DNA of 64,000 nt, taken from the IMG/VR virus record IMGVR_UViG_3300045988_115146; one strand, written 5' to 3'. This DNA is from a virus. Both the position numbers and the translations under genes were made by a program. This document shows, piece after piece, positions 5,358-45,320 of this stretch. Under the pieces are notes generated by a model that was given only the letters and a program-made list of their open reading frames with translations, was not told the DNA's origin and made no database searches. Numbering within the stretch: the first letter of the stretch is position 1; every line of letters starts with the position of its first letter.

Positions 5358-5360
5358 TAT

Positions 5361-6428
5361 ATGGACAAAAGATTAAAAATACTTTTGGAAGAGGTTAAAG
5401 GTTCAGATCCTAACCTTGATACCATGGATAGAAACACAAGAGTAAGAGCTGGTAATTACCAATTCCCTTTCTCTGGTCAGCAGTTAGATTATCTGTTATT
5501 AACTTTAGCTAAGAAATTATCCGGTGATGATATACTGATATTCTCTGATCCAAGTAATCCTCAGACTGTATTAACAGAGATAACCAAATATCAGCTGGAT
5601 GATCCATCTAAAATATATACTTCTTATGAAGTAGTATTTGGAACTTATCTCGGTACATTAAGAATAGATTCTCAAGATACGGCTAGTGTATCCATATTAC
5701 AGTCAGGTAAGATAATTTACTGTAACATGGATTTAACAGATGGTCAAGTAACTCTAGAAAAAGAAATACAGTTAGATGACTTAGATAAGGTTACTCATGA
5801 GGAACATATATTAACTCTTGAGATAGGTGATTCTGCCGAAGTTAGCGAAAGGAACTTAGAAAAGTTGAGAGCTAATGCTGGAGAACATTTCCTATGTAAC
5901 CTTGATTATGGATACGGAGTAGGCAGGTGGAATCCAACTGATGGTGGTAGTTCAGTAATAATGACTTCTGAGGGTATAAAGACAAGTTGGGACTTAGCTC
6001 CTGACGGTTCTATATCCAAAATAGAAGACGAAATATTGCCAGATGTTCCTTACCGAGTAAGTGTACCAGGCACTTCTATAAATACAGTTGTTGATGAAGT
6101 GATAGGGTCACAAATAATCAAAGCTAGTGTACTGGTAATAGAAGGAGGATCTACTGGGCCGATATCTTATTTAAGATGTGTAGATTCTACAAGCAGTGTA
6201 ATTCAATTCGCTTCTATAACTAAAGATCTAAGGTTATCTGTACTCTCATATGATGTATCTGCAAGAAATTTGACCCAGGCATTCGTAAATATAAACGAAG
6301 AGCCAGAAGGTATTGCTAATTCATTATATCAGTACCTTGGATTTACTGAGGAAGAGTTAACTGCAGAACAGTTTAAGAATGGATTGAAAAATGCCATATT
6401 AGCTTACAAAGACGGGCCAATTGCTTAA
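5361..6428 (+). CDS. hypothetical structural protein
   Basis: 355-aa ORF immediately upstream of the sheath gene. Confidence 0.45.
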   Translation: MDKRLKILLEEVKGSDPNLDTMDRNTRVRAGNYQFPFSGQQLDYLLLTLAKKLSGDDILIFSDPSNPQTVLTEITKYQLDDPSKIYTSYEVVFGTYLGTLRIDSQDTASVSILQSGKIIYCNMDLTDGQVTLEKEIQLDDLDKVTHEEHILTLEIGDSAEVSERNLEKLRANAGEHFLCNLDYGYGVGRWNPTDGGSSVIMTSEGIKTSWDLAPDGSISKIEDEILPDVPYRVSVPGTSINTVVDEVIGSQIIKASVLVIEGGSTGPISYLRCVDSTSSVIQFASITKDLRLSVLSYDVSARNLTQAFVNINEEPEGIANSLYQYLGFTEEELTAEQFKNGLKNAILAYKDGPIA

Positions 6429-28361: not shown

Positions 28362-28481
28362 ATGAAAAGATATGATCCAATGGTAGAAGCAGCTAAACCC
28401 TTATTAGTGTTATATACTGTAGCTATAATAATTGGTTTGATATTGGGTATTATTTGTTGGATATTTGATATAAGAATATGA
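28362..28481 (+). CDS. small TM protein (39 aa; below the ORF-track cutoff)
   Basis: MKRYDPMVEAAKPLLVLYTVAIIIGLILGIICWIFDIRI*. Its stop overlaps the next ATG (ATGA). Confidence 0.35.
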   Translation: MKRYDPMVEAAKPLLVLYTVAIIIGLILGIICWIFDIRI

Positions 28482-29908
28482 TAACTATAACTATCAAGAA
28501 CTGTAATGTTTGTGAGATTTCTGGCCCAGCTAAATTCACAAATAAATTATATGAGGCTTTCAGGATCAAGCATCCTGATGCCTGGCATATATTGATGTAT
28601 AGCAGGGCAAAGAATTGGGATGGGTATGTAAAATATATCTCAGATTATGGTCAATTCAAGATAGGCCTACTGAATAAGGTTTATAATGAATGCTGTAAAA
28701 TGGGACAAAAAGTAAAAATTATAGATAATAGACCCCCGTTAGGAATTAAACCAGTAATTCCAGATGTACTGGGAGATAAAAATCTACGGGAAGTACAAAA
28801 AGAAGCTCTAGAAAAGATACTAAATAATCGTGTAGGGGATACTCCTTTCCTGATTTGTGCATCAGACCTGGCTGTAAATTTTGGTAAGACCCTTATATTT
28901 TGTGGGTTACATCAAGCCTTCAATAGGAAATTGAAAACTGTGTTGTTATTAAACAGTGCAGATTTGTTTAAGCAATTCAAAAAGGAGATTCCAGAGTTGT
29001 TACCAGGTGAAAAGATTGCATTTATCCAAGGTAGTAAATGTAATGATTGGGGTAACTTCAATGTGTGCATGGTACAGTCATTATCGTCTAACATAAAACG
29101 GTACCAAAGATTCCTATCAGAAATTGATATGGTATTAATAGATGAGGCTGATGTCATAGATAACAAAACCTATAAAACCGTAATACAGCACTTATACAAC
29201 TCTAGAATACGAATTGGATTGAGTGGTACAATTTACATGAGTGACCAGAAGAAGAAATTGATACATAACCTAAATATCATGTCTTTCATTGGTGATAAAG
29301 TTAACCAAGTAAAACTGGTTGATATGATAGAGAAAGGATATTCTACTCCCATCACCTGTAAACTGGTATATGCTCCCTTTAAGTATTCTAAAGAAGTTGA
29401 CTATCCAACAGAATACAAAGAAGTGATATGTGATAACAAAGAAGCTTGGAAGTTTTCTCTTGATCGTACAAGATACAATCTGAAGAGAAAAAGATTGCCA
29501 GCTCTTATTGTATGTAAGTTCATTGACCATTGTGAAAATCTTTACAAGTATTACGTTAAACATCTTGGAAATGATTACAGTATACAATATGTACATCATA
29601 AGACAAAAGGGCGTGATAAAATTCTACAAGATTTCAGGGAAGGGAGAATTGATGTGCTAATTGCTACTACAATCATTTCTAGAGGTCAAAATTTCCCTGA
29701 ATTGAAATATCTTCAGAATACTGCATCAATGGATTCTAATGAAAAATCGATACAGATATTGGGACGTCTTGCAAGAACTCACATGAATAAGAAGAAGGCA
29801 TATCTTGATGACCTTCAATTCCCTGGTCATTACCTTAAGAGGCATGGCAATCATAGAAAAACGTATTATCAGAAAGAAAATTTAAAGGTAATCAAGGTGG
29901 AGGGATAA
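28478..29908 (+). CDS. superfamily 2 DEAD/DEAH-type helicase (UvsW / type III Res-like)
   Basis: The motifs seen are AVNFGKT (I), LIDEAD (II), GLSGT (III), ATTIISRGQNFP (V) and QILGRLAR (VI). Confidence 0.75.
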   Translation: MITITIKNCNVCEISGPAKFTNKLYEAFRIKHPDAWHILMYSRAKNWDGYVKYISDYGQFKIGLLNKVYNECCKMGQKVKIIDNRPPLGIKPVIPDVLGDKNLREVQKEALEKILNNRVGDTPFLICASDLAVNFGKTLIFCGLHQAFNRKLKTVLLLNSADLFKQFKKEIPELLPGEKIAFIQGSKCNDWGNFNVCMVQSLSSNIKRYQRFLSEIDMVLIDEADVIDNKTYKTVIQHLYNSRIRIGLSGTIYMSDQKKKLIHNLNIMSFIGDKVNQVKLVDMIEKGYSTPITCKLVYAPFKYSKEVDYPTEYKEVICDNKEAWKFSLDRTRYNLKRKRLPALIVCKFIDHCENLYKYYVKHLGNDYSIQYVHHKTKGRDKILQDFREGRIDVLIATTIISRGQNFPELKYLQNTASMDSNEKSIQILGRLARTHMNKKKAYLDDLQFPGHYLKRHGNHRKTYYQKENLKVIKVEG

Positions 29909-29909
29909 T

Positions 29910-30073
29910 ACGCACGCGTATGCGTATATACTTACCTGTATATCTCTATTAGTATTTTAGTATACTAAAATACTAATAGAGGTTTATATAGCTAAAGCTA
30001 TATAAACTTATACTTTCTATACTTACTTTAGTAAGTCTTTAAGCTAAAGCTTAATAATGCGCACGCACGCATA
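29910..30073. repeat. compound palindromic intergenic region flanked by CGCACGC boxes (candidate origin or regulatory hub)
   Basis: Four palindromes lie at 29944-29981, 29982-30007, 30021-30036 and 30039-30054. GC-rich boxes acgcacgcgtatgcgta (29910-29926) and tgcgcacgcacgcata (30058-30073) flank them. Confidence 0.7.
29944..29981. repeat. perfect 38-bp palindrome
   Basis: ctctattagtattttagta | tactaaaatactaatagag, verified base by base. Confidence 0.95.
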
Positions 30074-30165
30074 AGGGATTGCCTGAAAGTTAGTGCATAT
30101 ACTATTCTACATCAATGAAACAGAAAAACCTATTAACTATTGAATGATATCAAACACTCGAATAT

Positions 30166-30567
30166 ATGGCTAAGAAAAAGAAAGACAAACTTAAAGATGC
30201 CAGGGAAGAATTAGAATCAGGTGATATCCTTGAACCAATGGATATTTCTAAGTTGGGAACAAACGGAGATGTATGCTTTGGTAAGCATTATGATCTTTCA
30301 ACCAAGGAATGCAAGATGTGCGGGGATTCCGAATTATGTTGTATCAAGTTCACAGATCTAATGGGTAAGACCAGAAAGGAATTAGAAGCTGATACCCAAT
30401 ACAAGGATTTGGAACCTTTGATTGATATGGCAGGTTGCAAGAAGTATTACCGTAAATTGGTAAGGGATAAACTTGGTAAGAGAGAAATACTTGATAAGCT
30501 TCAGAGTAGGTTTGAATTATCACGTAAAGAAGCAAGAGACTTATACCGTAAATTTAACAGTAAATAA
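30166..30567 (+). CDS. hypothetical K/E-rich protein with a Cys cluster
   Basis: 133 aa; CFGKHYDLSTKECKMCGDSELCC. Confidence 0.45.
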   Translation: MAKKKKDKLKDAREELESGDILEPMDISKLGTNGDVCFGKHYDLSTKECKMCGDSELCCIKFTDLMGKTRKELEADTQYKDLEPLIDMAGCKKYYRKLVRDKLGKREILDKLQSRFELSRKEARDLYRKFNSK

Positions 30568-30568
30568 C

Positions 30569-31144
30569 ATGATTCAATTAGAGTTCACAAAGATTCGGGA
30601 GGTTAAATCCCCCAACCGAGCAAACGAAGGGGATGCAGGTTTAGATTTCTATATCCCTAAGTTATCAGAAAAGGATATACTAAGGGTGGGGGAAAAAGAT
30701 TTACGTGATATGGTTGGTATCAACCGTAAGATGTATAGTAAAGGTTATATCAAGTTCAATGGTATGGGAACTGATGATCTTTATGTAATCGTTAAACCTC
30801 ATGGAAGGTTGCTTATTCCATCAGGTATAAAGGTACTGATCAATCCCAAAGAGTCTATGCTAATGGCAGCAAACAAATCTGGGGTTGCTACTAAAGATGG
30901 GTTGACATTCACTGCAGAGATTGTGGATAGTCCATATACTGGTGAAATGCACATAGGTATACAAAATAATTCACCTGAAGAAGTATGGATACCTCTTCAA
31001 CAGGATAAGAAGATAATGCAGTTCATACATGTTCCAATCCTACTTTCAAATCCCATAGAGATACCTAATGAGGAGTATGAAGAGAAAGCAAAGGACTGGG
31101 GAACAAGAGGAGACAAAGGATTTGGTGCACACGATAACAAATAA
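30569..31144 (+). CDS. dut: trimeric dUTP diphosphatase
   Basis: The ANEGDAGLDFYIP motif and beta-rich sequence fit dUTPase, and the C-terminus ends GDKGFG. ATG at 30569 directly follows the upstream stop, so the track start at 30473 is an overlapping upstream extension. Confidence 0.75.
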   Translation: MIQLEFTKIREVKSPNRANEGDAGLDFYIPKLSEKDILRVGEKDLRDMVGINRKMYSKGYIKFNGMGTDDLYVIVKPHGRLLIPSGIKVLINPKESMLMAANKSGVATKDGLTFTAEIVDSPYTGEMHIGIQNNSPEEVWIPLQQDKKIMQFIHVPILLSNPIEIPNEEYEEKAKDWGTRGDKGFGAHDNK

Positions 31145-31148
31145 GAAG

Positions 31149-32060
31149 ATGGACTCGAGGGACATAATTCAGGAACCTGGTATCATACCCGGTGATAAGT
31201 ATTTGGAAGAGATATACTCTATGCAAAAAGAACTGTTATCTGGTTATATAGGCATAGAGGGATTACCACAATACCCAATAGACATAAATACTAAGGCATC
31301 ACAATCCTTGTTGAAGGATTTCACTGCTAGAGTGGTAGAGGAATTATCAGAGGGATATGAATCATTCCAAGCTATCAGTGAAAGTATGAGTAAAAATCAT
31401 TGGAAGTTAGCTAATGGTAATTGTGAAGACTCAATCTACATTGAATTGTTAAACAATCTTCAAAATGCCAATGAAGAGAATGCAGATGCAATACACTTCT
31501 TTGTAGAGTTGCTAATATATGCAAATGTAGGTCCAGATGACATTATGTCATATATGGAGAAGTATGCTAAGGATAATCACTTCAATAAGATTGAAATTGA
31601 TAGTTTCAATGAAATGAGAGGTGATGTATTATATACTGCTCAGAATATGGGAGTGAAATGGTTGATGGATGAGGGTAATATTGATGTTACACTTAATCAT
31701 CAAAAGATAGATCTCTTAAAGTGGTATGAGAATAAAGATAGTGGATCTTTACCTGAATACAACATAAACTTATTAGTTGGTGGTAGGATGTATAACTATG
31801 AGGACTATGAAATTCAATATCCATACATACTGTGGAAGATAACCCATCACCTTAACATTGCTCGTAACTTTTTGAAGAATAAGCCTTGGAAGCAATCTCA
31901 GGTAATGACTCAAGAGTTAAAGTACCAGGCTGAATTAGTGAAGGCATTCATATATTTCTGTGGATACCTTGGATGGATAGGTATGGATTCAAAGGAAGTA
32001 TTCTACATCTACTTCAAAAAGAATCACATTAATATGTTCCGTCAAAAGTCGAAGTATTAA
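31149..32060 (+). CDS. all-alpha NTP pyrophosphohydrolase (dimeric dUTPase / MazG / dCTPase-like)
   Basis: FTARVVEELSEGYES (ExxE) and NANEENADAIHFFVELL (EExxD) are typical of dimeric dUTPase/MazG-type enzymes. The likely start is ATG 31149 (MDSRD). Confidence 0.5.
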   Translation: MDSRDIIQEPGIIPGDKYLEEIYSMQKELLSGYIGIEGLPQYPIDINTKASQSLLKDFTARVVEELSEGYESFQAISESMSKNHWKLANGNCEDSIYIELLNNLQNANEENADAIHFFVELLIYANVGPDDIMSYMEKYAKDNHFNKIEIDSFNEMRGDVLYTAQNMGVKWLMDEGNIDVTLNHQKIDLLKWYENKDSGSLPEYNINLLVGGRMYNYEDYEIQYPYILWKITHHLNIARNFLKNKPWKQSQVMTQELKYQAELVKAFIYFCGYLGWIGMDSKEVFYIYFKKNHINMFRQKSKY

Positions 32061-32061
32061 T

Positions 32062-33051
32062 ATGAACATAGTAAAGAGCAATAGGCCAGTAGATGCTTGG
32101 GAGCAAATACTTGAAAATTTTTTGGTTAAGAAACCAGAATGGTTTAGTGAAGGGATAGGGTATAACTTAACCGATTCATTATTCACTTATGATCTGGTAG
32201 TAGAGATATCAGAAGCTAAGTTTGATCCAGAATTTGATTTTGGTAAGTTATTTGGATATACAGCTACTAAGTGGACTGGATTAATAACTAATTACCTTGA
32301 TCTTGATATTCTTGATCAGGCAAAGTTAATGATAAGGAAGTTAGAGGAGAATAAGGCAGTAAATAGGAATTATCACATCGGTTTCCATTTTGCTGACAAT
32401 CATGGCAGTGGAAAAGGATGCTTGGTTGGAGGTATATTCTCCCGTAAGATTGGGGTTGATAATCCTGAGGTAACAGTAATCATACGTTCATCCGAAGTAG
32501 TTACAAGGTTGCCAATAGACATGTTGCTGTTCTGTCGTATGGGACAGTACATTTATGGTCATGATAATTTTTCATTGAAGTTAGTTATCAAGGCTGCTTG
32601 GGCAAATGATACTACCATACTTCTATATCAGAATATAAAGGACTTAAAAGAGTTCTTGAAAGAAAACTGTAATGATGAGGCTCGTAGGAAAAAGATACGT
32701 AAGTCACTGAAAAAATTAATGACAAGTGATGAGGCTAGTTATAAAACCTATGGCAACAGTTTTAGAGCTTTCAAAGTACTTAGGAAAGATTTAGGATATA
32801 AGCAAAAATCAATGTTGGCCTCTGACTTAGAAATTGGAGATTGGGATGGAATTCCATTACCAGAGGTATGTCCATCAATTCTAAAGCGTAACATGATAAA
32901 GAAGACATATCTTAAGTTCACAGAGAAGTATGGCCTTAAACTAAAGTTGGAAGAGAATACAGAGAAGAAAAAGAAAAAGTTGATATCATTCTCTTCACCT
33001 GATGAAGATGATATGGATGATAACGAACCAATAGCTGAGGCTAATGAGTAA
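32062..33051 (+). CDS. divergent thymidylate-synthase-fold protein, paralog A
   Basis: NRNYHIGFHF...GKGCLVGGIFSRK...VTVIIRSSEVVTRLPIDMLLFCRMGQY parallels the ThyA segments sRR.i.s / PC.. / RS.D. It is clearly paralogous to the next ORF (DPEFDFGKLFGYTATKWTGLITNYLD versus DPEFDFGRHFNYTSAKWKSLIANYID). Confidence 0.4.
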   Translation: MNIVKSNRPVDAWEQILENFLVKKPEWFSEGIGYNLTDSLFTYDLVVEISEAKFDPEFDFGKLFGYTATKWTGLITNYLDLDILDQAKLMIRKLEENKAVNRNYHIGFHFADNHGSGKGCLVGGIFSRKIGVDNPEVTVIIRSSEVVTRLPIDMLLFCRMGQYIYGHDNFSLKLVIKAAWANDTTILLYQNIKDLKEFLKENCNDEARRKKIRKSLKKLMTSDEASYKTYGNSFRAFKVLRKDLGYKQKSMLASDLEIGDWDGIPLPEVCPSILKRNMIKKTYLKFTEKYGLKLKLEENTEKKKKKLISFSSPDEDDMDDNEPIAEANE

Positions 33052-33829
33052 GTTAAAAGTAAAGAATAACCTGTTAGTGTTCCGAAATAGCATGAAAGCT
33101 TGGGAGGGGCTTAACAGGTTATTCTTATTCAATATTCCCGGTTTGGATATTGAAAGAATTGGTAAAGCTCAATATATAAATGATTTGGTTATTTATATTA
33201 AAGAACCTCTAGTAGACCCGGAATTTGATTTTGGAAGGCACTTTAATTATACATCTGCTAAATGGAAATCTTTGATAGCTAATTATATAGATGAGAATTC
33301 AATGATTGATCTGAGACAAGAAGTGGTGAGATCATTGAATTCAAGAAAGATTTTCAACATAGGGTATCAGTTTGATAATAAGCATGCACATGGAAAGAAT
33401 TGTTTATTATCATTGACAGTATCAAAGAAAGCTGGTATGGATTATCCCATGATAACGGTATTCATGAGGGCTTCTGAAGTAACTAAAAGACTAATATGTG
33501 ATCTTTTATTAATACAAAGAATTGGTGAATACATATTCACTGGGGATAAATTCTGTATATCAATACACTTTAGTCAGATATTCAATGATGATACGGTATT
33601 ATTGATGTACCATGCTCATGAGGATCTATTAAAGCTTAGTGATAGAATTGGTATATATGATAGTAATTGGTATGATAGGCTGAAGTATCTACTAAAAGTA
33701 GATCCCGATAAGATAAAGTATAAGGTACATAAAAGAGCATTGAAAGTACTTAGGCCAGAATTGTTTAAGTATCCTAAAACTCTGGCCAAGGATTGTACAC
33801 TGGGTAATGAAGACTGGCTACCTTTCTAA
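33044..33829 (+). CDS. divergent thymidylate-synthase-fold protein, paralog B
   Basis: SRKIFNIGYQF...GKNCLLSLTVSKK...ITVFMRASEVTKRLICDLLLIQRIGEY. It is a tandem paralog of 32062-33051. Confidence 0.4.
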   Translation: MSKLKVKNNLLVFRNSMKAWEGLNRLFLFNIPGLDIERIGKAQYINDLVIYIKEPLVDPEFDFGRHFNYTSAKWKSLIANYIDENSMIDLRQEVVRSLNSRKIFNIGYQFDNKHAHGKNCLLSLTVSKKAGMDYPMITVFMRASEVTKRLICDLLLIQRIGEYIFTGDKFCISIHFSQIFNDDTVLLMYHAHEDLLKLSDRIGIYDSNWYDRLKYLLKVDPDKIKYKVHKRALKVLRPELFKYPKTLAKDCTLGNEDWLPF

Positions 33830-33873
33830 GAAAGGGAAGTCTATTGAATTGCAAACATAAAAAAATTATAACC

Positions 33874-34644
33874 ATGAGAATATATTCAAATCCCTACGAA
33901 TTGATGTCTGAGACTGCCCGTAATATATGGGAGATGGGTACAGAGGTAAAACCAAAAACTTACCAAAACAAAGTAATAGAAGGCAAAGATGAGTTCATAA
34001 CTAAAGAGCTTATTTGTGAACAATATTGCTTAACTCACATGGATGATCCATCTCCATTATTTGTATTTACCAAATCTAAAGATTGGGCAGATGCCGAATT
34101 TAAAGAGAGAATTAGTGGAGTAATGGAAAATCCAGGTAAAGCTTGGGAATTACGTAAAGATATCTGGGAAGAGTTCTTAGTAAATGGGTTCTTTGATTAT
34201 ACCTATGCTGAACGTATGAATGAGACAGTTTCATATAAAGGCAAGGCATTTTCTAAAATAGGAGCAATTATAGAGTTGTTAAAAACAGACAACGATACTA
34301 GAAAAGCCATACTAAATATATATGGTGAGGATGGTTTTAATGAGGATTGTGATTCAAACTATCTTGGTGGTGAACATAGAATACCATGTTCAATGTATTA
34401 TGATTTCCTTATCCGGGAGAATGCCAGAGGAGAAAAGCAATTAAATATTTGCTATCACCAAAGATCATCCGATTTTGTAACTCATTTCGGAAATGATGTA
34501 TATTTGGCATGGAGACTGATGGAATATGTAGCTAGTGAAGTAGGAATTAAACCTGGATATTTATATCAAACTATTGATAGTTTGCATAGCTATAAAAAAG
34601 ATTGGGTAAAGTTAAAGACATCAATCCAAACTGAATTGAGATAA
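33874..34644 (+). CDS. ThyA-family enzyme (thymidylate synthase or dNMP hydroxymethylase/methylase)
   Basis: TRKAILNIYG...RIPCSMYYDFLIR...LNICYHQRSSDFVTHFGNDVYLAWRLMEYVA aligns without gaps to the ThyA segments PCH..QF and [20 protein letters not shown]. The track start at 33844 is TTG; ATG 33874 is likelier. Confidence 0.7.
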   Translation: MRIYSNPYELMSETARNIWEMGTEVKPKTYQNKVIEGKDEFITKELICEQYCLTHMDDPSPLFVFTKSKDWADAEFKERISGVMENPGKAWELRKDIWEEFLVNGFFDYTYAERMNETVSYKGKAFSKIGAIIELLKTDNDTRKAILNIYGEDGFNEDCDSNYLGGEHRIPCSMYYDFLIRENARGEKQLNICYHQRSSDFVTHFGNDVYLAWRLMEYVASEVGIKPGYLYQTIDSLHSYKKDWVKLKTSIQTELR

Positions 34645-34648
34645 CCTC

Positions 34649-34723
34649 ATGGGTAATGGTATGTTTTGAATGGTGTCCTATCTGAGAATTGAGATTAAAG
34701 CTAAATAAATTACCATTACCCAT
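34649..34723. repeat. 13-bp inverted repeat with a 49-nt spacer, upstream of the tRNA cluster
   Basis: atgggtaatggta (34649-34661) pairs with taccattacccat (34711-34723). Confidence 0.8.
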
Positions 34724-34727
34724 CTTT

Positions 34728-34804
34728 GGGCCCATAGCTCAGTTGGTAAGAGCAGCGGACTCATAATCCGAAGGTCGGGGGTTCAAGCCCCTCTGGGCCC
34801 ACCA
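34728..34804 (+). tRNA. tRNA-Met (anticodon CAT; could be an Ile2-type if lysidinylated), CCA encoded
   Basis: The cloverleaf was folded by hand: acceptor gggccca/tgggccc, T-arm ggggg-ttcaagc-ccctc, anticodon loop ctCATaa (CAT at 34762-34764). Confidence 0.85.
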
Positions 34805-34903
34805 AAGATTTTCTCTTATTTTCTTATTTTGTGCGTGGACAATACAAACAGTCCTGGTAAATTCGAAGGTACTAGACAGTAGTGATACAGGCTAGTACCA
34901 ATT

Positions 34904-34978
34904 ACGGGAGTAGCACAGTCAGGTTAGTGTACTTGCTTTGGGAGCAAGTGGTCGCAGGTTCGAATCCTGTCTCCCGTA
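34904..34978 (+). tRNA. tRNA-Pro (anticodon TGG)
   Basis: Acceptor acgggag/ctcccgt, anticodon stem cttgc/gcaag with loop ttTGGga, T-loop ttcgaat. Confidence 0.8.
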
Positions 34979-34991
34979 CATATTAGTAAAG

Positions 34992-35074
34992 GCTCGGATG
35001 GAGAAATAGGTAAACTCATCAGATTTAAGCTCTGACGGTCATTGACCTTGCGGGTTCGACTCCCGCTCCGAGTA
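34992..35074 (+). tRNA. tRNA-Leu (anticodon TAA), class II with a long variable arm
   Basis: Acceptor gctcgga/tccgagt, anticodon stem tcaga/tctga with loop ttTAAgc, variable arm cggtcattgaccttg, T-arm gcggg-ttcgact-cccgc. Confidence 0.8.
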
Positions 35075-35098
35075 CATAGTATCAAATACTCTTGTCTT

Positions 35099-35797
35099 AT
35101 GAATGATGTTATAATTACCATGGCTGGAAAGGGTACAAGAACAAATAAAGAAGTACCCAAACAATTCTTAAAAGTATCACAAGATAAATACCTATTTGAA
35201 ATCTCATTAGATAAATTTATACGTACTGGATGCTATCGTAAGATAGTTCTTGTTGTGAATCCAGAGTATGTAGAGTGGGTAAAAAATAGAATATCTAATA
35301 ACTATCCAGGTAAATTAGGCAGATTAATCACAGTAATACCAGGTGGTGATACTGCACAACACTCGAGAATCTTAGGATTTGAAAGCTTATTAACAGATGA
35401 GGAATCACTTTGGCCAAATACAGTTACTTTCCATGATGGTGTAAGAGTTGGTTTCGATGAAAATCTACTAACATTCATGATTAATAATTGTAGGTTTAAT
35501 AGCACTGCATATGTACCGTATATTCCAGCAACTGGTACATTAAGATTAGATTCTGATAAGGTAGTATATACTAAGGATAAGTACATGAGGCTTCAGACTC
35601 CCATGGTATTTCCATTTTACCAATTCTATGGATGTTATAATAAGGCAAAAGATAAGGGTATAGAATACCAAACAGCTTCTGATTTGTATGAAGACAACAG
35701 TGGTTTAGTGAACTATGTAATGGGTAATAGATTGAACTTCAAGGTAACTTTCGCAGAAGATATTGATGTAGTAAGATTATTATACAATCATGAATAA
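35099..35797 (+). CDS. IspD/TarI-family cytidylyltransferase (CDP-alcohol synthase)
   Basis: The N-terminus is [23 protein letters not shown] (compare AAG.G.R......PKQ.L), followed by HDGVRV and LQTPMVF. The true ATG is 35099, because the track start at 35042 lies inside tRNA-Leu. Confidence 0.75.
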
Positions 35798-36662
35798 TAT
35801 GAGTTATATTAGTAATCATATCCATAATGGTCATCTAATAAGCAACCTTAGGAGAGAAGTATGGGATATAGAACTAGATATGTTAGATCTAGTAGTTAAT
35901 ATATGTGACAAGATAGGAGTAAAATATTATCTTGATGCAGGTACACTATTAGGTGCAGTTAGACACCAAGGATTCATACCTTGGGATGATGATATCGATT
36001 TGGTAATGTTCAGAGATGAATATGATAAGTTTATATCATACTGTAGGGAAAATTTAGAATATCCATATTTCTTACAAGTACCAGAAACTGATACTTCTAT
36101 TTATCAACATGCAAAGATAAGGAGGAGTGATACAACAGCTATATTAGAAAGGGATCTAGAAGCTAATTGGGATTTTAATCAAGGCATATTCATAGATATA
36201 TTCCCATTAGATAGAGTTCCAGAAGATAAGGGGAAAAGGGAAAGATTTCTATATGAATTGCAATTAATTAAACTAGAACTCTTCTTTTTAAAGAATAGGA
36301 GCTGGAAATTTGCTAATATTCCCCTTGAAAGGGAAAGAATGAATTACCTTAAAAACCTTTATGAAAAGAATAGGAAAAGGTATAATAACACTCAAGAGAA
36401 TTGTTGGGCAACATTAGCTTTTCCTGAACATAACAATATCATAAAGAATATTGATTTTTACAAGAACCAATATCCGGATGTATTCTTAACATTTGAAGGT
36501 AGAAATTTGAGAGTACCGAATATTTACCATGGAGTATTGGAAGACATATATGGAGAGGATTACTTAACTCCCAAGAAATATTCTGGATTACATGGTAGGA
36601 TATTGGTGAATACTCATAAAACATATAAAAACAATATGGAAGACTTTCAAATATTGAAGTAG
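35790..36662 (+). CDS. LicD-family phosphotransferase (phosphocholine / ribitol-phosphate transferase family)
   Basis: [36 protein letters not shown] is the LicD signature, including the DxD. Confidence 0.75.
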
Positions 36663-36667
36663 GTTAT

Positions 36668-36697
36668 AGACAGTATACCGTAAAAAGTATACTGTCT
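36668..36697 (+). terminator. 11-bp hairpin after the LicD-like gene
   Basis: agacagtatac (36668-36678) pairs with gtatactgtct (36687-36697). The downstream T-tract (tattg) is weak. Confidence 0.45.
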
Positions 36698-36782
36698 TAT
36701 TGTCGAATAAGCTAAAGAATCTCAACAGAGTTATGGTTTATTAAATAACTATTGAATACTGCAATATTTAATAATATTATAG

Positions 36783-38351
36783 ATGGAGTCAAGATATGCC
36801 ATAATAAAGAGTTTTTCACAGGTTAAGAAACTTGTGAAAGCTTGTTTGAAGACAGGTATAGCTTCAATAGACTATGAGACTAATGCTGAAGGCATATACA
36901 ATAAAACATTTAGACCAACAATTCTATCAGTAACTTTCCAGGTTGGTTCTGGAGTATCTATTCCATTATGTCATCATGAATATGATAACCCTCATTGGAA
37001 AAAATGGCTTCTATACTTTGGTAGAAAAGTAGTTGAGAATCCAAAAGTAACTAAAGTAGGTTGGAATCTGAAGTTTGACCTTCAGATATTCGAGTTGTAT
37101 GGTATATATGTAAGAGGTACAGTACTTGATGGTATGTTAATGAAGTATCTCTTAAATGAAGAGAAACCAAATGACCTTAAATCAATGGTTCGTAGGTATT
37201 TACCAGAACACGGAGATTACGAAAAAGCTGATAAGTTTGATAAGATACCATGGAATAAAAAGCCACTGGAACCACTCTGCAAATATGGATGTCAAGATAC
37301 CGATTATACCCTACGATTATCTATGTTCTTTGAGAACAAATTGATAGAAATAGGTATGTATCCATTATTAAGGCATCTGATAATGCCAGCATCAAGAGTA
37401 TTACAGCATGCAGAGAAAACTGGTTTATACCTTGATAGGAAATTCAATCAGGAATTACTTGAATCTTACAAGCCAAAGATTGATCAAGCAACTTTAAATT
37501 GCTTGAATCTTCCCAGAGTTAAAAGATTCTCTAGATGGCTTATCCAAGAAAGAATAAGCAAATACATTTCTTCAATTGAAATGGAACTTGAAGACTTGGA
37601 TTATAGTGATCCAAAAAATGCAAGGAAGATAGCTAGCAGGGAACAAAAAATATCTAACATAAGAGCTGGTGTATATACAACCAAGAAAGAATTAGAATTA
37701 ACCCGTGATATAAATCTTGGTAGTAAAGTAGACTTACCAATGTTGTTATATTCTGAAAAGGGGTTCAAATTCCCTATTATAAAATATACGAAGGATAAGA
37801 CTACAAATCGTGATACTGATAAGCCGAGTACTGATGAGGATACATTGGTAGAACTTCGGTTGTCAATTAAGAATCCCGAAAGTCCCAAAGCAATATTCTT
37901 GGATAATCTACTCAAGTTGAGAGGATTGAAGAAGATGTACACTACATATATAAAAGGGTGGCACGATAAAGTACAGGATGATAATAAATTACATGGAAGA
38001 TTTTTGATACATGGAACAACTAGCGGGAGATTGAGTTGCATAGGCGGAGATACAAAAGTATTAACTCAATATGGAGAAATACCAATTATAGATATTAAGG
38101 ATTGGATTGGTGAAGGATTATGTGCCATGACTAAAGATGGGTGGCAATTAATAGAAAACTTCATATATAAGGGTGTTGATGATATGTATGAAGTAACACT
38201 TGAAGATGGTACTTCTATTCAATGTACTTTAGATCATAAATTTATAACTAATAAAGGTACTAAAAGATTAAGGGAAATTTACAATAAATACCGAAATACT
38301 ATTGATTCTAAAATTAAACTTTTAAGATATGTCCCAGACTACGAACAATAG
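36783..38351 (+). CDS. family A DNA polymerase, N-terminal fragment (3'-5' exonuclease + start of the pol domain) fused to a split-intein N-half
   Basis: The exonuclease motifs are SIDYETNAE, GWNLKFDLQIF and YGCQDTDYTLRL. The pol motif TTSGRLS is followed by CIGGDTKVLT...TLDHKF (intein blocks A and B), then a stop after 104 intein residues. Confidence 0.8.
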   Translation: MESRYAIIKSFSQVKKLVKACLKTGIASIDYETNAEGIYNKTFRPTILSVTFQVGSGVSIPLCHHEYDNPHWKKWLLYFGRKVVENPKVTKVGWNLKFDLQIFELYGIYVRGTVLDGMLMKYLLNEEKPNDLKSMVRRYLPEHGDYEKADKFDKIPWNKKPLEPLCKYGCQDTDYTLRLSMFFENKLIEIGMYPLLRHLIMPASRVLQHAEKTGLYLDRKFNQELLESYKPKIDQATLNCLNLPRVKRFSRWLIQERISKYISSIEMELEDLDYSDPKNARKIASREQKISNIRAGVYTTKKELELTRDINLGSKVDLPMLLYSEKGFKFPIIKYTKDKTTNRDTDKPSTDEDTLVELRLSIKNPESPKAIFLDNLLKLRGLKKMYTTYIKGWHDKVQDDNKLHGRFLIHGTTSGRLSCIGGDTKVLTQYGEIPIIDIKDWIGEGLCAMTKDGWQLIENFIYKGVDDMYEVTLEDGTSIQCTLDHKFITNKGTKRLREIYNKYRNTIDSKIKLLRYVPDYEQ

Positions 38352-39383
38352 GCAAAAGGTATTCAAAGATAAATCTATCAACGGTCCAAGGAGAAAATTA
38401 AAGTTAATAGTAGAGGATGGTAAAAGATATATAAAGAAAGAAGATCTTTTACATTACTTCTTTCAAGAGAATTGGAATATAGAAGACTTTAATTATCATT
38501 TTGGCATTGGTCATAGGATAGTGAGAGGTTCTCTATATAAATGGTTTACTAGGGAAGAAATAGAGGAATCTCATAGAAAGAAGATTGCTAATAAACAGAT
38601 TGGTAGTAATAATTCTAATAGGATTAATTGGTATAAACCCCGTAAGCTTATACCTTTATTGGATTTAGAAGAAGCCGTTAAAAAATCTACTTGTAAACAG
38701 GATTTGAAGGAGAGACTACAATTAACTTCTTGGGAATTGTCACACATACAACAGTTCTATAACTTTAAACTACCAAATAGATCTCCTTTACTTAATACTA
38801 AACTACAGTATTCTCTTTCTAGATGTGATATAAAACTTTTATGTAAAGTTATTACTGGAATGGGATGGGAAGATGTATTTTTCTATAATACTCCTAAGGC
38901 TATCTATAAAATGGATTGTCTTATTTGGGAACTTAGGAAGATAAATCGTTCTTTGAGGAGAGCTTTTAGGAAACAGATAGTAGATAATGGTATTAAGTTT
39001 CCTACAAATTTGATAGAGTATAAATTTCACAAAGCTCTAGAAAAAATGGATATAGAGCATGAAATACAATATTATATACCAGAACATAATATACATCTAG
39101 ACTTTTTAATAAAAGGTCATTACAACTTGGAATTAGATGGAAATTTGCATGAAGAAGAAGCAGATAGTGGTAGAGACCGTATTCTCAAATCTCTTGGCTA
39201 TAAAATTATAAGACTAGATTTAAAATCTCTAAATCTTACTAGATTCTCAAAAGAAAAGGAGGTAAGGAAATGTATAAAGAAATTGGTATTACCAAAGTTA
39301 AACCAATAGGTAAGAAAGGTGTATATGATTTATCCGTTATGAACTGTCATCAGTTTGTGGCTAATAATATCCTAAATCATAAT
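38037..39383 (+). mobile_element. split intein (IntN 38037-38348, IntC 39270-39383) enclosing a free-standing endonuclease gene
   Basis: IntN starts at Cys (tgc 38037-38039). IntC is MYKEIGITKVKPIGKKGVYDLSVMNCHQFVANNILNHN, followed by Ser+1 (tct 39384-39386). The joined exteins read TSGRLS/SQEPNLQQIP, which is the PolA T.TGRLSS..PNLQNIP motif. Confidence 0.75.
38329..39309 (+). CDS. free-standing homing-endonuclease candidate with a Vsr/DUF559-like PD-(D/E)xK C-terminal domain
   Basis: The C-terminus is HKALEKMDIEHEIQYYIPEHNIHLDFLIKGHYNLELDGNLHEEEADSGRDRILKSLGYKIIRL (DUF559/Vsr pattern). It uses a different frame from both polymerase halves and overlaps each by 23-40 nt. Confidence 0.6.
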   Translation: MSQTTNNRQKVFKDKSINGPRRKLKLIVEDGKRYIKKEDLLHYFFQENWNIEDFNYHFGIGHRIVRGSLYKWFTREEIEESHRKKIANKQIGSNNSNRINWYKPRKLIPLLDLEEAVKKSTCKQDLKERLQLTSWELSHIQQFYNFKLPNRSPLLNTKLQYSLSRCDIKLLCKVITGMGWEDVFFYNTPKAIYKMDCLIWELRKINRSLRRAFRKQIVDNGIKFPTNLIEYKFHKALEKMDIEHEIQYYIPEHNIHLDFLIKGHYNLELDGNLHEEEADSGRDRILKSLGYKIIRLDLKSLNLTRFSKEKEVRKCIKKLVLPKLNQ

Positions 39384-40424
39384 TCTCAAGAACCAAACTT
39401 ACAGCAAATCCCAAAGACTTCAGTAGACCCAAATATAAAGAAGCAATTAGTAGCCCCAGATGGTAAGTTGTACATGGCTCTTGACTACTCTCAAGCAGAG
39501 TTAAGAATCATGGCTCATCTGTCTGGGGATGAAACATATCTTGAGGCTTTTGCAAAAGGTCAGGATCCTCACCTTGCTATTGCAGCAAAGAAGTATGGGG
39601 TATCATATGAGGAAGCATATAAAGCTTACAGTGATGAACAACACCCAGATCATAATCTTTGGAAGAACCGAAGAAAGCAGGCAAAACAGATTTGCTTCGG
39701 TATTATCTATGGTATTCAGAAGAAACTGCTTGCAGTTAAATTGTCAGATCCAAAAGCTGGTATTATTGTAACACCAGATGAAGCTCAGCAGCAGTTAAAT
39801 GAATTCTTCTATGAACATCCTAAGATTAAAAAGTTCATGATTCATCAAGAAAAGGTATTGATTAAGCATGGGTATATAAAATCTTTGTTCGGAAGAAAGA
39901 GAAGGTTACCTCAGGTATATTCCGATAATGAACAAGAAGCAGCATACGCAGTACGATTATCTGTTAATATGCCATGTCAATCAGCAGCATCTGATATGAA
40001 CTTATTTGCTTCAGTATTAAACTATTGGAAAATGAGACAAGGTAAGTTGCCATTTATGCAAGAGACTTGTAATGTTCACGATGCTACCTACTATTTGGTG
40101 AGGCCAGAATATATAAATACATGGGTAGTACATGAAATATGGGAAACTTGTCGTAACCCTAATACAAAAGAATATTTTAACTTTCAGATAGACGACGTCA
40201 ATATGAGCATGGATTTTGTTATAGGACGTTCAATGGCAGAGGAATTACCATTTATACCCGGTTATGATTATAGGAAAATGCTTAAACCAGATTTTAATCC
40301 AGATGAGTACTTAGAAGAACATCGTAAGTACAGAGGTATTGAAATAGAAGATTACCCTAAGTTGTATCCAGAAGAGATAGCTAGGAATAAAATGGAATTT
40401 GAGAAAAGGATATATGAAAGGTAA
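39270..40424 (+). CDS. split-intein C-half fused to the family A DNA polymerase C-terminal fragment (palm/fingers)
   Basis: Motif A is LDYSQAELRIMAHLSGDE, motif B is RRKQAKQICFGIIYG, and motif C is NVHDATYYLV. Confidence 0.8.
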   Translation: MYKEIGITKVKPIGKKGVYDLSVMNCHQFVANNILNHNSQEPNLQQIPKTSVDPNIKKQLVAPDGKLYMALDYSQAELRIMAHLSGDETYLEAFAKGQDPHLAIAAKKYGVSYEEAYKAYSDEQHPDHNLWKNRRKQAKQICFGIIYGIQKKLLAVKLSDPKAGIIVTPDEAQQQLNEFFYEHPKIKKFMIHQEKVLIKHGYIKSLFGRKRRLPQVYSDNEQEAAYAVRLSVNMPCQSAASDMNLFASVLNYWKMRQGKLPFMQETCNVHDATYYLVRPEYINTWVVHEIWETCRNPNTKEYFNFQIDDVNMSMDFVIGRSMAEELPFIPGYDYRKMLKPDFNPDEYLEEHRKYRGIEIEDYPKLYPEEIARNKMEFEKRIYER

Positions 40425-40908
40425 TATACCATACTTTGATTGTTATCATGTTACAAGAAGTGGTGATGTATACTCCAAGTATAAAGACAAAGTTACTTGG
40501 AGGAAAATGGCTAAGAGAAAGAAGAATAATGGTTACATTATAGTAAGCTTAAGAAATAACGATGGGGTTAAGTATACATTTAACATACATAGGTTAGTAG
40601 CTGAAACTTATATACCTAACCCAGATAATAAGCCATGTGTAGGTCATAAAGACAATAATAGGGAAAACAATACAGTAGAAAACTTATACTGGTGTACTCA
40701 TAAAGAAAATACTAAACAATGTATAGATGATGGTAGATTTAATATACCAAGCCAAAAGTTAAATGATGAGTCTATAAATAGTATGATAGAAGATTATGAA
40801 AGTGGTATGAGTAACATACAGATAAAGGCCAAATACAAAATAAGTATTATGACCATGTATAAATACTTCAACGAAAGAGGTGTTATATGGAAAAAAGTCA
40901 AAAGGTAG
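40399..40908 (+). CDS. HNH homing endonuclease (NUMOD4 + HNH_3 + C-terminal HTH)
   Basis: YHVTRSGDVYS (NUMOD4), GHKDNNRENNTVENLYWCTHKEN (HNH), and MSNIQIKAKYKISIMTMYKY (HTH-like). It overlaps the polymerase 3' end. Confidence 0.75.
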   Translation: MRKGYMKGNIPYFDCYHVTRSGDVYSKYKDKVTWRKMAKRKKNNGYIIVSLRNNDGVKYTFNIHRLVAETYIPNPDNKPCVGHKDNNRENNTVENLYWCTHKENTKQCIDDGRFNIPSQKLNDESINSMIEDYESGMSNIQIKAKYKISIMTMYKYFNERGVIWKKVKR

Positions 40909-41335: not shown

Positions 41336-41710
41336 ATGTCAAAAGTAGAATTAAACCTTCTTTCAGTAGAAGAAGCAAAATGGTTAAACGAAAAACTGAA
41401 AGGTGTAGGAACACCAACAGGTGGGAGGGTATTAATTGTATCCCCGAAGGTAACATCAGAGACTAAAACTCAGAGTGGTCTTTATATCCCACAAGATCAT
41501 GATAAGGATACTGTACCACGTAAAGGGGTAGTAATTCAAGTGGGGTATATTACCAAAGAACAGGAAGTAGATTATCCAGGTCTTCAGGTTGGTGCAGTAG
41601 TAACTTATGGTCTATATGCAGGTAAAGAATTAGATGTAATAGACCTTCCTGATCAGGTAACAACTATATTATCACTGAACGAGATACTTTATATTGAAAC
41701 CAATAAATAA
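41336..41710 (+). CDS. GroES/Cpn10-like co-chaperonin (T4 gp31 analogue) with an N-terminal extension
   Basis: GGRVLIVSPKVTSETKTQSGLYIPQD...PRKGVVIQVGY...VGAVVTYGLYAGKELDV fits the Cpn10 pattern. Confidence 0.6.
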   Translation: MSKVELNLLSVEEAKWLNEKLKGVGTPTGGRVLIVSPKVTSETKTQSGLYIPQDHDKDTVPRKGVVIQVGYITKEQEVDYPGLQVGAVVTYGLYAGKELDVIDLPDQVTTILSLNEILYIETNK

Positions 41711-43774: not shown

Positions 43775-44674
43775 ATGCTTATGGTAGTGGACGGTAGTAA
43801 CCTTGCTCACCGTTCATACCATAAGTTTAAGAATCTTAAAGCTAATAATGGAGCTGGAACAGGATTAGTATATGGGTTCTTAAGAATATTTGGTTCATAC
43901 CTTGTAAGGTTTAAGCCAAGTCATGTGGTAATTACATTTGATACACATAAGAGTAAATCATCAAACTTCCGTAATGACTTATTGGAGGGTTATAAAGCTC
44001 ACAGAAGTAAGGTAAGTATGGATTATGAAGACTTCAATAAACAATTGGCTTTGTTGAGAAGGATATTGAGATTACTTGGAGTTCAAATGATCATAGACAA
44101 TAAAGGATTGGGACATGAATCAGATGATTACATTGCTTGGTTGGTAATAAACCATAAAGGAAAATCACTGATAATATCTTCTGACAAAGACTTCTGTCAA
44201 TTGTTAGATAAGAAGGTAAAGATATTCAACCCAAGTAAAGAAACTCTAGTACATAACCAGACATGTAGAGAGATAATGGGATATTCAGCAGAAGAATGTG
44301 TTGACTACTTAATACTCAACGGAGATAAGTCAGATGACATACCTGGTTATTATGGTATGGGAGAAGTAAAGACTAGATCATTCCTTGATAAATTTGGTAG
44401 TATAGCAGATTTTATTAATGATAGTGAAGCAGAATTCAAAGGTATAGAAAGAGATCAATTAGAAGAGTTATATAAGAAGAATAAGTCTCTGATAGACTTG
44501 AGATCTGCTTTGAATCTGTATCCAATAAAGATAATCCCTTGGGTAAAAGGATGTACTAATAATATAAGGAAAGACAGGTTATTCATGGTATTAGATAAGT
44601 TTAACCTAAGATCTTTCAAGATACCAGATTTTTTAGAACCTTTCAAAAAACTACAGACTTATGTATCACGGTAA
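43775..44674 (+). CDS. 5'-3' exonuclease / flap endonuclease (T4 RNase H / Pol I N-terminal domain family)
   Basis: The motifs are MVVDGSNLAHRSYH, ESDDYIA, SSDKDFCQL and GDKSDDIPG. The start was chosen after the RecA stop. Confidence 0.8.
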   Translation: MLMVVDGSNLAHRSYHKFKNLKANNGAGTGLVYGFLRIFGSYLVRFKPSHVVITFDTHKSKSSNFRNDLLEGYKAHRSKVSMDYEDFNKQLALLRRILRLLGVQMIIDNKGLGHESDDYIAWLVINHKGKSLIISSDKDFCQLLDKKVKIFNPSKETLVHNQTCREIMGYSAEECVDYLILNGDKSDDIPGYYGMGEVKTRSFLDKFGSIADFINDSEAEFKGIERDQLEELYKKNKSLIDLRSALNLYPIKIIPWVKGCTNNIRKDRLFMVLDKFNLRSFKIPDFLEPFKKLQTYVSR

Positions 44675-45320
44675 GTATCAAATTATGTTCACCGGTGTTT
44701 CTGGAGTAGGGAAAACTACTATAGCTAAAGAAATAGCCGAATTATTGAATATACCATTCATATCTGGGTCATATTCAGATTTAGTACCAGAAACAAAAGA
44801 TATGCCACATGCTGATATGATACAGCAAGATGCAAAAACAGTATTTATGCAAGATATGCAAGTATTGAATCTACGTAACAAAGCTTTCCGAATGGAAGAT
44901 AACTTTGTAACAGATAGATCATACTTTGATTCTGCAGCATATTTCATTAATAAGTTATCCCATAGAATTGAAGAATGTGATCTAGATCATGCCATCAACT
45001 TATGTAGAATGTTACTTGGTCAACAGTGTACACATTTGATATTCATACCATTTTCGGATAAATTCTTTAATGAGTGGGTAACTGAGAATAATGGTAAAAG
45101 GGTATTGTCAAAGTACTACCAATATCAAGTATCTCAAATAATGTATGGTTTATTAAAAGTATGGGGATATAAACCAGATTCAAAAATATATCAACTATGT
45201 AATGGAGTTCCCAATACAGGGGTGATGGATATAATGGGTTATAAGGTAAAAGTTCTCATACTTGATGAGATGAATCACGAAAAGAGAGAATACTTAATCA
45301 GGAAGTTTCTTCAGTTATGA
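44661..45320 (+). CDS. P-loop nucleotide/nucleoside-monophosphate kinase-like protein
   Basis: The P-loop is FTGVSGVGKTTIAKE, and the protein is small (219 aa). Substrate is unknown. Confidence 0.45.
   Translation: MYHGKYQIMFTGVSGVGKTTIAKEIAELLNIPFISGSYSDLVPETKDMPHADMIQQDAKTVFMQDMQVLNLRNKAFRMEDNFVTDRSYFDSAAYFINKLSHRIEECDLDHAINLCRMLLGQQCTHLIFIPFSDKFFNEWVTENNGKRVLSKYYQYQVSQIMYGLLKVWGYKPDSKIYQLCNGVPNTGVMDIMGYKVKVLILDEMNHEKREYLIRKFLQL

Follow-up and report, generated by a model that had tools for sequence, protein, structure and literature searches.

A tail-less thymidylate synthase homolog of predicted cytosine type is coupled in phages to a new, widespread branch of the thymidylate synthase fold

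What would a tailed gut phage do with three genes of the thymidylate synthase (TS) fold placed one after another? The question is raised by a stretch of 64,000 nucleotides (nt) from the IMG/VR virus record IMGVR_UViG_3300045988_115146 (the window, for what follows), in which three open reading frames (ORFs) of this kind follow each other on the plus strand, with baseplate J and tape-measure genes upstream and a replication module downstream:

32062-33051, plus strand: parA, 329 amino acids (aa), with a charged C-terminal tail; an extra paralog of the X family, predicted TS fold
33044-33829, plus strand: parB, 261 aa; a core member of the X family, TS fold, with conserved Cys120, Arg142, Glu145, Asp153, and Tyr81
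33874-34644, plus strand: a tail-less TS-family enzyme, 256 aa, with Cys172, Arg169, Arg197-Ser198, Asp200, Asp208, His238, and Tyr240

Here, X stands for the paralog family that contains parA and parB. The reading that we favor, with a probability of roughly 0.55, is that the trio is the core of a pre-replicative module that modifies cytosine in the nucleotide pool, X being an obligate and probably catalytic partner of the TS homolog. The paralogs are not a local curiosity. They are a member pair of a widespread family that is always coupled to one subtype of TS, tail-less and with an arginine three residues before the catalytic cysteine, Arg(-3). The region from 30000 to 37000 is 96.5% identical to "Phage DP SC_6_H4_2017" (MT121964.1), from human feces.

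The product of the third gene belongs to the TS family according to both Pfam (Thymidylat_synt, PF00303; E value of 2.5e-15, 56.8 bits for a cut-off of 24.3) and PHROGs (PHROG 160, "thymidylate synthase"; E value of 1.4e-26). In HMMER alignments to solved TS chains, its RIPC segment pairs with the catalytic PC, as a preliminary description of the locus had proposed, and QRSSD pairs with QRS(A/C)D; a MAFFT alignment with Escherichia coli ThyA, T4 gp42, and the enzyme of Xanthomonas phage Xp12 agrees with this residue pairing. The equivalences with E. coli ThyA are Cys172 to Cys146, Arg197-Ser198 to Arg166-Ser167, Asp200 to Asp169, Asp208 to Asn177, and His238/Tyr240 to His207/Tyr209, with Cys172, Arg197, and Ser198 aligned and invariant among family members. 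The earlier assignment of Asp208, the aspartate of a GND motif, to the Asn177 site held: there is no gap between the Arg and the Asp (HMMER, with MAFFT in agreement), and the neighboring Asn is not the equivalent residue, Asp208 being invariant in 31 of 31 members while position 207 varies (Asn in 18, Thr in 8, and Asp in 3). The motif FRND179 of T4 gp42 is the same as GND208 of the window; the gp42 sequence used here matches all 19 residue numbers quoted in PMC6400193. A gap-free alignment to the ThyA core had also been claimed, and this stood locally but not over the whole core: the third gene has extra residues inserted between Cys and Arg and lacks the final ~50 residues of ThyA. The sequence stops 16 residues past its H-x-Y motif, without the C-terminal tail of ThyA. 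An invariant Arg169 occupies the Leu143 position, three residues before the Cys, and Tyr109-Thr110-Tyr111 falls at the Ser/Thr-x-Tyr site of T4 (Ser94 and Tyr96), the equivalent of Ser94 being an invariant Tyr in a pairing that depends on the alignment.

Published signatures link some of these positions to substrate and product (PMC13326640; PMC6400193): Asp177 redirects TS-family enzymes to dCMP as substrate, Leu143 plus a C-terminal lid with reductive methylation, Asp/Glu at 143 plus Ser/Thr-x-Tyr and no tail with hydroxymethylation, and Asp169-to-Asn with flavin-dependent 5-hydroxylation. The third gene departs from classical ThyA in having Asp208 instead of Asn177, Arg169 instead of Leu143, and no C-terminal tail. 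With the T4-type dCMP hydroxymethylases it shares the Asp at 179 (i.e., 177) and the missing tail, but neither the Asp/Glu three before the Cys nor the Ser/Thr-x-Tyr (PMC6400193), and its Asp200 differs from the Asn that the 5-hydroxy-dCMP synthases have for Asp169 (PMC13326640). A family profile searched against the PDB retrieved AfhB, the dCMP hydroxylase of phage HY126 (9iqu/9iqc; E value of 3.5e-10), and MilA (1.2e-5) ahead of any ThyA. The AlphaFold2 (AF2) model (predicted local distance difference test [pLDDT] of 87.6) was closest to MilA (template modeling score [TM] of 0.74) and AfhB; ThyA chains reached TM values of about 0.62 to 0.71 with Foldseek E values (about 1e-12) comparable to those of the best matches. 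The invariant Asp, the cytosine-specific nearest solved relatives by sequence, and the missing ThyA tail support the previous suggestion that this is not a classical dUMP-to-dTMP synthase. Database names would make it an ordinary TS (Pfam and NCBIfam name it "thymidylate synthase," and GenBank annotators label its orthologs likewise), the paralogs then being decayed duplicates of no consequence. We find this hardly credible, given the invariant Asp208 at the Asn177 site, the loss of the tail needed for hydride transfer, the coexistence of true Asn177 ThyA genes in some relatives, and the clear purifying selection on the paralogs across hundreds of clusters. An Asp177 TS homolog is a known kind of enzyme, of which this is an unclassified subtype. 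Judged by its sequence, it would be a cytosine-type homolog outside the current product signatures, with a 5-methyl, a 5-hydroxymethyl, or some other derivative as candidate product.

Comparison with characterized enzymes gave a similar mixture of likeness and difference. T4 gp42, a dCMP hydroxymethylase (dCH), resembles the third gene in its TS fold, its catalytic Cys, the Asp of an "ND" motif at the Asn177 site, and the absence of a C-terminal tail, and its pathway resembles the window module in having a dCTPase, a kinase, and a polymerase. It differs in the water-activation signature positions, with Asp/Glu rather than Arg three before the Cys and Ser-x-Tyr rather than Tyr-Thr-Tyr (PMC6400193). 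The dCMP methyltransferase of Xp12 (5-methyl-dCMP [5mdCMP] synthase) also has Asp177 and Asp169, but it has a long ThyA-like C-terminal region and a DHFR neighbor, whereas the window enzyme is tail-less and has X as a neighbor instead of DHFR. Xp12 has besides a deaminase selective for 5-methylcytosine (5mC), and a gene of the dCMP deaminase family lies between TS and PolA in two metagenomic relatives (L003 and L004) and in phages PMBT14, Muddy, Zuko, and P744, although the window itself, unlike Xp12, has no deaminase. MilA, the CMP 5-hydroxymethylase of the mildiomycin pathway, ranks first among the structural matches to the third gene, is also among the top ones for parB, and has Asp at the Asn177 site; however, it acts on a ribonucleotide in an antibiotic pathway, has Asp three before the Cys, and is only about 16% identical. 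The 5-hydroxy-dCMP synthases (HY126 AfhB, RB69 gp48, and DLP3 gp80) are, like the window proteins, compact tail-less TS folds and act on dCMP, AfhB ranking first in the PDB for the third gene by sequence and for parB by structure. These synthases require flavin and O2 and carry Asp169-to-Asn, whereas all three window proteins keep the carboxylate. Finally, ThyA shares with the third gene the fold, the Cys nucleophile, Arg166-Ser167, and Asp169, but not Asn177, Leu143, or the C-terminal lid, and separate, extra ThyA genes are found in some relatives (L074, L078, and L081).

The two upstream ORFs had been described as clear mutual paralogs with a faint TS-like order of motifs, perhaps a new branch of the fold with other substrates. 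They are indeed paralogs (35% identity over 267 residues; E value of 2e-45). Neither of them has a Pfam or NCBIfam match, the PF00303 profile included; the only PHROG retrieved by parB was PHROG 34294, "unknown function," so that X is left without a function by PHROGs as well. When the PDB was searched with the parB sequence by itself and with the family profile, only noise came back (PilT and centrin; E > 0.09). The relationship of X with TS was detected only by a diverse TS profile and by structure comparison. The AF2 model of parB, built with 50 family sequences, had a pLDDT of 91.7 and a predicted template modeling score (pTM) of 0.90, and when it was compared with the PDB by Foldseek, the 50 matches listed, including all 13 with E values of ≤0.001, were TS-family chains: AfhB (6e-7), MilA (3e-6), T4 dCH (1e-4), and ThyA chains (from about 1e-3 upward). 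The TM values were 0.40 to 0.56 among the matches listed, that of AfhB being 0.56 on the target. In BFVD, two close uncharacterized homologs came first, then an uncharacterized protein of PMBT14 (TM of 0.63), followed by phage TS and dCMP hydroxymethylases. The profile-profile comparison suggested in the preliminary description pointed the same way, since hhalign of X against the diverse TS profile gave an E value of 1.5e-4 (probability of 51% over 109 columns); against a narrow alignment of gut-phage TS it was not significant (E value of 0.13).

The residues paired by hhalign are Cys120/Cys146, Arg142/Arg166, Glu145/Asp169, and Asp153/Asn177. The faint motif order is therefore real, with Cys120...Arg142-x-x-Glu145...Asp153 of parB spaced as Cys146...Arg166-x-x-Asp169...Asn177 of TS, and the paralogs do model as a TS fold; for parA, this fold is deduced from its 35% identity to parB. 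What has to be changed is the statement that one of the three genes has Asp at the Asn177 site, as all three have it. By its model, X belongs to the TS fold as a compact branch, and its Asp occupies the site that discriminates between pyrimidines. It is a new and widespread branch, of which we found no study; as the paralogs also carry the Asp, the "other substrates" would probably still be a cytosine nucleotide.

The family is large and well conserved. For parB, 132 relatives were found in a collection of 5.8 billion proteins, and an exhaustive profile search of 1.8 billion proteins gave 256 X clusters (50% identity). Cys120, Arg142, Asp153, and Tyr81 (parB numbering) do not vary among the 108 diverged full-length members compared, and Lys73, Trp74, Tyr69, and Glu145 hardly vary, with Tyr in place of the Glu in Muddy gp47. 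Most gut relatives at a greater distance (L005 and L063 to L085) have an ortholog of parA (46 to 56% identity), and Cys...Arg-x-x-(Glu/Asp)...Asp is kept in all 61 unique ones. Compared with ThyA, the Arg126'-Arg127' loop is not conserved, there is no H-x-Y motif (His207/Tyr209 in ThyA), and the folate-binding insert, which in ThyA includes Glu58 and Trp80, is ~30 residues long rather than ~70, all in regions that were aligned with low confidence. X has, in addition, a basic helical C-terminal extension with a conserved Tyr226-Lys227...Arg231. Profile searches with distant X members returned the same unnamed proteins only. Two GenBank records, Yersinia phage vB_YenM_P744 ORF027 (L095) and MW202455, name an X homolog "pyrimidine hmase synthase," and at least one annotation pipeline has thus already recognized the likeness of X to TS or pyrimidine hydroxymethylase.

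The conserved nucleophile, phosphate Arg, base-reading Asp, and Tyr argue, at the level of sequence, that X would be catalytic. The Tyr is possibly the equivalent of Tyr94, in a part of the alignment that is uncertain, and the carboxylate at the 169 position appears compatible with the use of folate, this residue handling the pterin in TS. As AfhB was the top Foldseek match (TM of 0.56 on the target) and X is compact like AfhB, with much of the folate-binding insert apparently missing, X could instead be flavin-dependent, as are AfhB and RB69 gp48, and hydroxylate or reduce the cytosine nucleotide. We consider this very unlikely, because the diagnostic Asp169-to-Asn change (PMC13326640) is missing: the residue is Glu145 in parB, Glu in parA, and Glu or Asp in the parA orthologs. 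Moreover, O2-dependent hydroxylation would be improbable in obligately anaerobic gut or clostridial hosts, if the host is what the data only hint at.

To see how X and TS are distributed, 85 related loci were annotated with local BLAST. In 84 of the 84 loci with enough downstream sequence, the gene after parB is the TS homolog, and the following gene orders were found:

53 of 85 loci: dUTPase, nucleoside-triphosphate pyrophosphohydrolase (NTP-PPase), parA, parB, TS, PolA
14 of 85 loci: the same, plus IspD and LicD
a few of 85 loci: without parA
five of 85 loci: with a true ThyA (Asn177) beside or instead of parA
two of 85 loci, marine and other distant ones: parB, TS, dCMP deaminase, PolA

The X-TS order was also found in metagenomic phages, marine ones among them, in another type of phage whose PolA is fused to UDG (L091), and in cultured phages of Clostridium perfringens (e.g., CPAS-15), Pseudomonas (PMBT14), Mycobacterium (Muddy, gp49 to gp44), Streptomyces (Zuko), Yersinia (P744), and Brevundimonas (Polewnik). 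The pair is common, being present in hundreds of gut-phage clusters and in the marine phages; the hosts of cultured carriers include Serratia and Gordonia besides these genera. In the cultured phages, the cassette consists of a thymidylate-kinase-like gene, a MazG/dUTPase-like gene, X, TS, an optional deaminase, and PolA. A hydrolase that is homologous or analogous to that of the window stands ahead of X in Muddy (gp48), PMBT14, Zuko (gp74), P744, and L091, PolA follows the module in every relative, a "thymidylate kinase" lies within the cassette in many, and a trimeric dUTPase-family gene stands upstream in most gut relatives. R-x-P-C, RSCD, and Asp177 are present in every partner TS, and none of these enzymes has the C-terminal tail; the Arg three before the Cys was seen in CPAS-15, L003 to L005, PMBT14, P744, Polewnik, Muddy, and Zuko. 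Phage records with X (13 + 85 + 17) and with this TS subtype (104) share nearly all of their host genera. No X gene was seen beside TS genes of the Xp12 type; T4-type loci were not directly examined, and T4 is not known to have an X-like second TS-fold partner.

The most divergent carriers are joined to the gut phages with decreasing confidence. By hhalign, gut X matched the group from proteobacterial phages with 90% probability (E value of 1.7e-6) and that from actinophages with 65% (6e-5). The link to Muddy X, probably a member of the family, is the weakest one and rests also on synteny and on the motifs KW..L..NY, C, and R...D. Actinophages (Muddy gp49 to gp44 [L088], Zuko gp73 to gp78 [L096], and 68 Gordonia records) carry the cassette as kinase, MazG-like gene, an X-like "hypothetical protein," TS (Arg at -3, Asp177, tail-less), deaminase, and PolA. 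This same cassette suggests that their DNA may bear modified cytosine, of which we found no report. Among 185,579 species genomes, searched for cellular contexts, X had five hits, all in metagenome-assembled genomes, on contigs of phage size (62 to 82 kb) or short fragments; labels such as Clostridium, Dysosmobacter, and Romboutsia, among others, hint at a Firmicutes host.

Such a strict association could simply reflect a shared operon of nucleotide metabolism in which each X protein would be an enzyme in its own right and act on a different substrate (a ribonucleotide, as for MilA, a di- or triphosphate, dUMP, or a 5-substituted pyrimidine), the phage ending with two or three modified pyrimidines or with a supply of thymidylate. 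The invariance of catalytic-type residues fits this, as does the apparent lack of the His-x-Tyr contact with deoxyribose. So does the lineage-variable content in deaminase, ThyA, and parA: five IMG/VR gut-phage contigs (L073, L074, L075, L078, and L081) have a canonical ThyA (Asn177, long C terminus, and 33 to 40% identity to E. coli ThyA) inserted at or next to the parA position, so that as many as four TS-fold genes stand side by side. Still, we judge it rather unlikely that X works independently, as it co-occurs strictly with one TS subtype, with start/stop overlaps in phages of hosts from Actinobacteria to Clostridia, and the invariant Asp at the Asn177 site speaks against uracil. Besides, when a role in thymidylate supply was tested, parA was not mutually exclusive with ThyA or with the deaminase, and parA and ThyA coexist.

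X and TS abut or overlap by 1 to 4 nt in most of PMBT14, Muddy, Zuko, P744, Polewnik, CPAS-15, and the metagenomic loci, which suggests translational coupling. Enzymes of the TS family are obligate dimers with shared active sites, and X might accordingly be a pseudoenzyme, a noncatalytic TS-fold subunit that forms a heterodimer with the TS and supplies a lid in place of the C-terminal tail, or some regulation. The tail-less partner, the apparent translational coupling, and the conserved basic C-terminal helical extension of X would all suit such a subunit. However, Cys, Arg, Asp, and Tyr at catalytic-equivalent positions in 108 of 108 members are hard to square with a purely structural role, and no fusion to TS or second domain was found among the long X members (P0252, P0281, P0274, P0290, and others), so that we take a noncatalytic X to be unlikely.

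If X is instead a catalytic partner, as we favor, the other genes of the window acquire putative roles. The neighbors are the following:

28478-29908, plus strand: SF2 helicase
between the helicase and the next gene, plus strand: ORF of 133 aa
30569-31144, plus strand: trimeric dUTPase-family protein (Pfam PF00692, E value of 4e-9; NCBIfam dut, 1.5e-14); the ORF is open from 30473, with an uncertain true start
31068-32060, plus strand: dimeric-dUTPase/MazG-like NTP-PPase, 330 aa (Pfam dUTPase_2, PF08761, E value of 1.2e-5)
34728-35075, plus strand: tRNA-Met, tRNA-Pro, and tRNA-Leu (ARAGORN), belonging to an insertion that separates PolA from the TS gene
35120-35797, plus strand: IspD/TarI-like cytidylyltransferase (PF01128, E value of 1e-23)
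35790-36662, plus strand: LicD-family phosphotransferase (PF04991, E value of 4.6e-39)
36783-40424, plus strand: family A DNA polymerase (PolA; PF01612, PF00476, and Intein_splicing), interrupted by an intein and an endonuclease ORF
44661-45320, plus strand: P-loop nucleotide-kinase-like protein, with weak AAA_18 and cytidylate/thymidylate-kinase-like matches

The NTP-PPase at 31068-32060, which also matches PHROG 12184 and PHROG 173 ("nucleotide pyrophosphohydrolase"), is a candidate dCTPase supplying dCMP, and the protein at 44661-45320 is a candidate deoxynucleoside monophosphate kinase for the modified nucleotide. The cassette combines the logic of T4 (dCTPase, dCMP-modifying TS homolog, monophosphate kinase, and polymerase) with the Pfam neighborhood of the MetaGPA preprint, in which cassettes of PRA-PH, TS(Asp177), deaminase, and PolA were enriched in cytosine-modified metavirome DNA (bioRxiv 10.1101/2024.12.05.627091), and it is from both together that we infer a module for C5 modification of cytosine in the nucleotide pool.

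The route would run as follows. The hydrolase would convert dCTP into dCMP, which the TS homolog would bind through Asp208; Cys172 would attack C6, and the one-carbon unit of methylene-tetrahydrofolate would be transferred to C5. parB and its lineage-specific duplicate parA would be minimal TS-fold enzymes, X having retained the nucleophilic Cys, the Arg that contacts phosphate, a carboxylate at the Asp169 site where folate is handled, the Asp that reads the base, and the Tyr. X would act as the obligate partner of the TS homolog on the same cytosine nucleotide, either within a hetero-oligomer or by determining what becomes of the exocyclic-methylene or 5-hydroxymethyl intermediate. The phage kinase and the nucleoside diphosphate kinase of the host would then take the product to the triphosphate, and the adjacent PolA would incorporate it. 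That the X-TS pair may decide the fate of the exocyclic methylene is suggested by the partner TS, which has neither the hydride-transfer lid nor the water-activating acid. The relatives with a deaminase would also make sense if the product were 5-methyl-dC, since its deamination would give dT, as in Xp12.

Several observations weigh against this route. The TS homolog fits neither product signature, its Arg standing where Leu (methyl) or Asp/Glu (hydroxymethyl) would be expected three before the Cys, while X appears to be without most of the folate-binding insert, the His-x-Tyr deoxyribose motif, and the Arg-Arg loop, and Muddy gp47 has exchanged the Glu for Tyr. MT121964.1 (L089), the near-identical relative, encodes, at a position that falls just beyond the window, a C5 cytosine DNA methylase (4682-5677; PF00145, E value of 6e-18), which would be redundant if every cytosine were already C5-substituted through the nucleotide pool. 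In the MetaGPA preprint, some TS homologs, when assayed by themselves, made 5mdCMP (bioRxiv 10.1101/2024.12.05.627091), and X would not be needed for methylation if any of those homologs belongs to this subtype. Finally, a literature search covering MT121964, PMBT14, Muddy and actinophages, and the PDB codes yielded no report on X, on modified DNA in the carriers, or on the composition of their DNA.

A bolder proposal, which we regard as unlikely, would be that X works together with the tail-less Arg(-3) TS as a two-component system for pyrimidine modification, by a chemistry new to the TS fold. Such chemistry might be a route to 5-methyl-dCMP without oxidation of folate or the trapping of the exocyclic methylene by a nucleophile other than water or hydride, giving a new cytosine base; in the subclade of the window, the cytidylyltransferase and LicD might attach a phospho-alcohol to the 5-hydroxymethyl group. 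If this were true, the carriers, including mycobacteriophage Muddy, which has been used therapeutically, would have unrecognized modified DNA.

Asp177 TS homologs are the entry to the known cytosine replacements of phages: 5mC, 5-hydroxymethylcytosine with its glycosides, and 5-hydroxycytosine. The published signatures assign the product from a few active-site residues, and the X-TS module is outside them, always bringing a second, unnamed TS-fold protein with invariant catalytic-type residues. Association screens based on Pfam, such as MetaGPA, would not register X because it has no Pfam model. The identity of the product would show whether the carrier phages have modified DNA, with a bearing on evasion of restriction and CRISPR, phage therapy with Muddy, and sequencing artifacts, and whether the TS fold performs another reaction or adopts another quaternary arrangement. 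The module might yield a new enzyme for nucleotide engineering, and cultured phages and plain coexpression experiments give direct access to the question.

Returning to the neighboring genes, membership of the IspD/TarI-like and LicD genes in the module is uncertain, as they are present in only 14 of the 85 related loci. In these loci they lie with tRNAs in an insertion, and we did not adopt them as enzymes of DNA hypermodification; they could equally modify teichoic acid in the likely Firmicutes host. LicD is rare in phage records, with 12 matches, none of them characterized. At 330 aa, the NTP-PPase of the window is roughly double the length of the equivalent proteins of Muddy (152 aa) and PMBT14 (139 aa), and two separate stretches of it match PHROG pyrophosphohydrolase families, which suggests an internally duplicated or two-domain enzyme.

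PolA is spread over three ORFs in the region 36783-40908. The first (36783-38351) contains the exonuclease, the N-terminal part of the polymerase, and an N-terminal intein piece, and the last (39270-40424), in the same frame, contains a C-terminal intein piece and the C-terminal part of the polymerase. Between them, in a different frame, lies a DUF559 endonuclease-like protein (38329-39309), and an HNH_3/HTH_7 ORF (40399-40908) comes after the PolA pieces. The arrangement resembles an intein, possibly a split one, into which a free-standing homing endonuclease has intruded; in two relatives (L004 and L005), the intein is in RecA rather than in PolA. A Cpn10/GroES-like cochaperonin (41336-41710; PF00166, E value of 1.4e-11), also found in L005, is encoded between the polymerase region and a gp32-like single-stranded DNA-binding protein.

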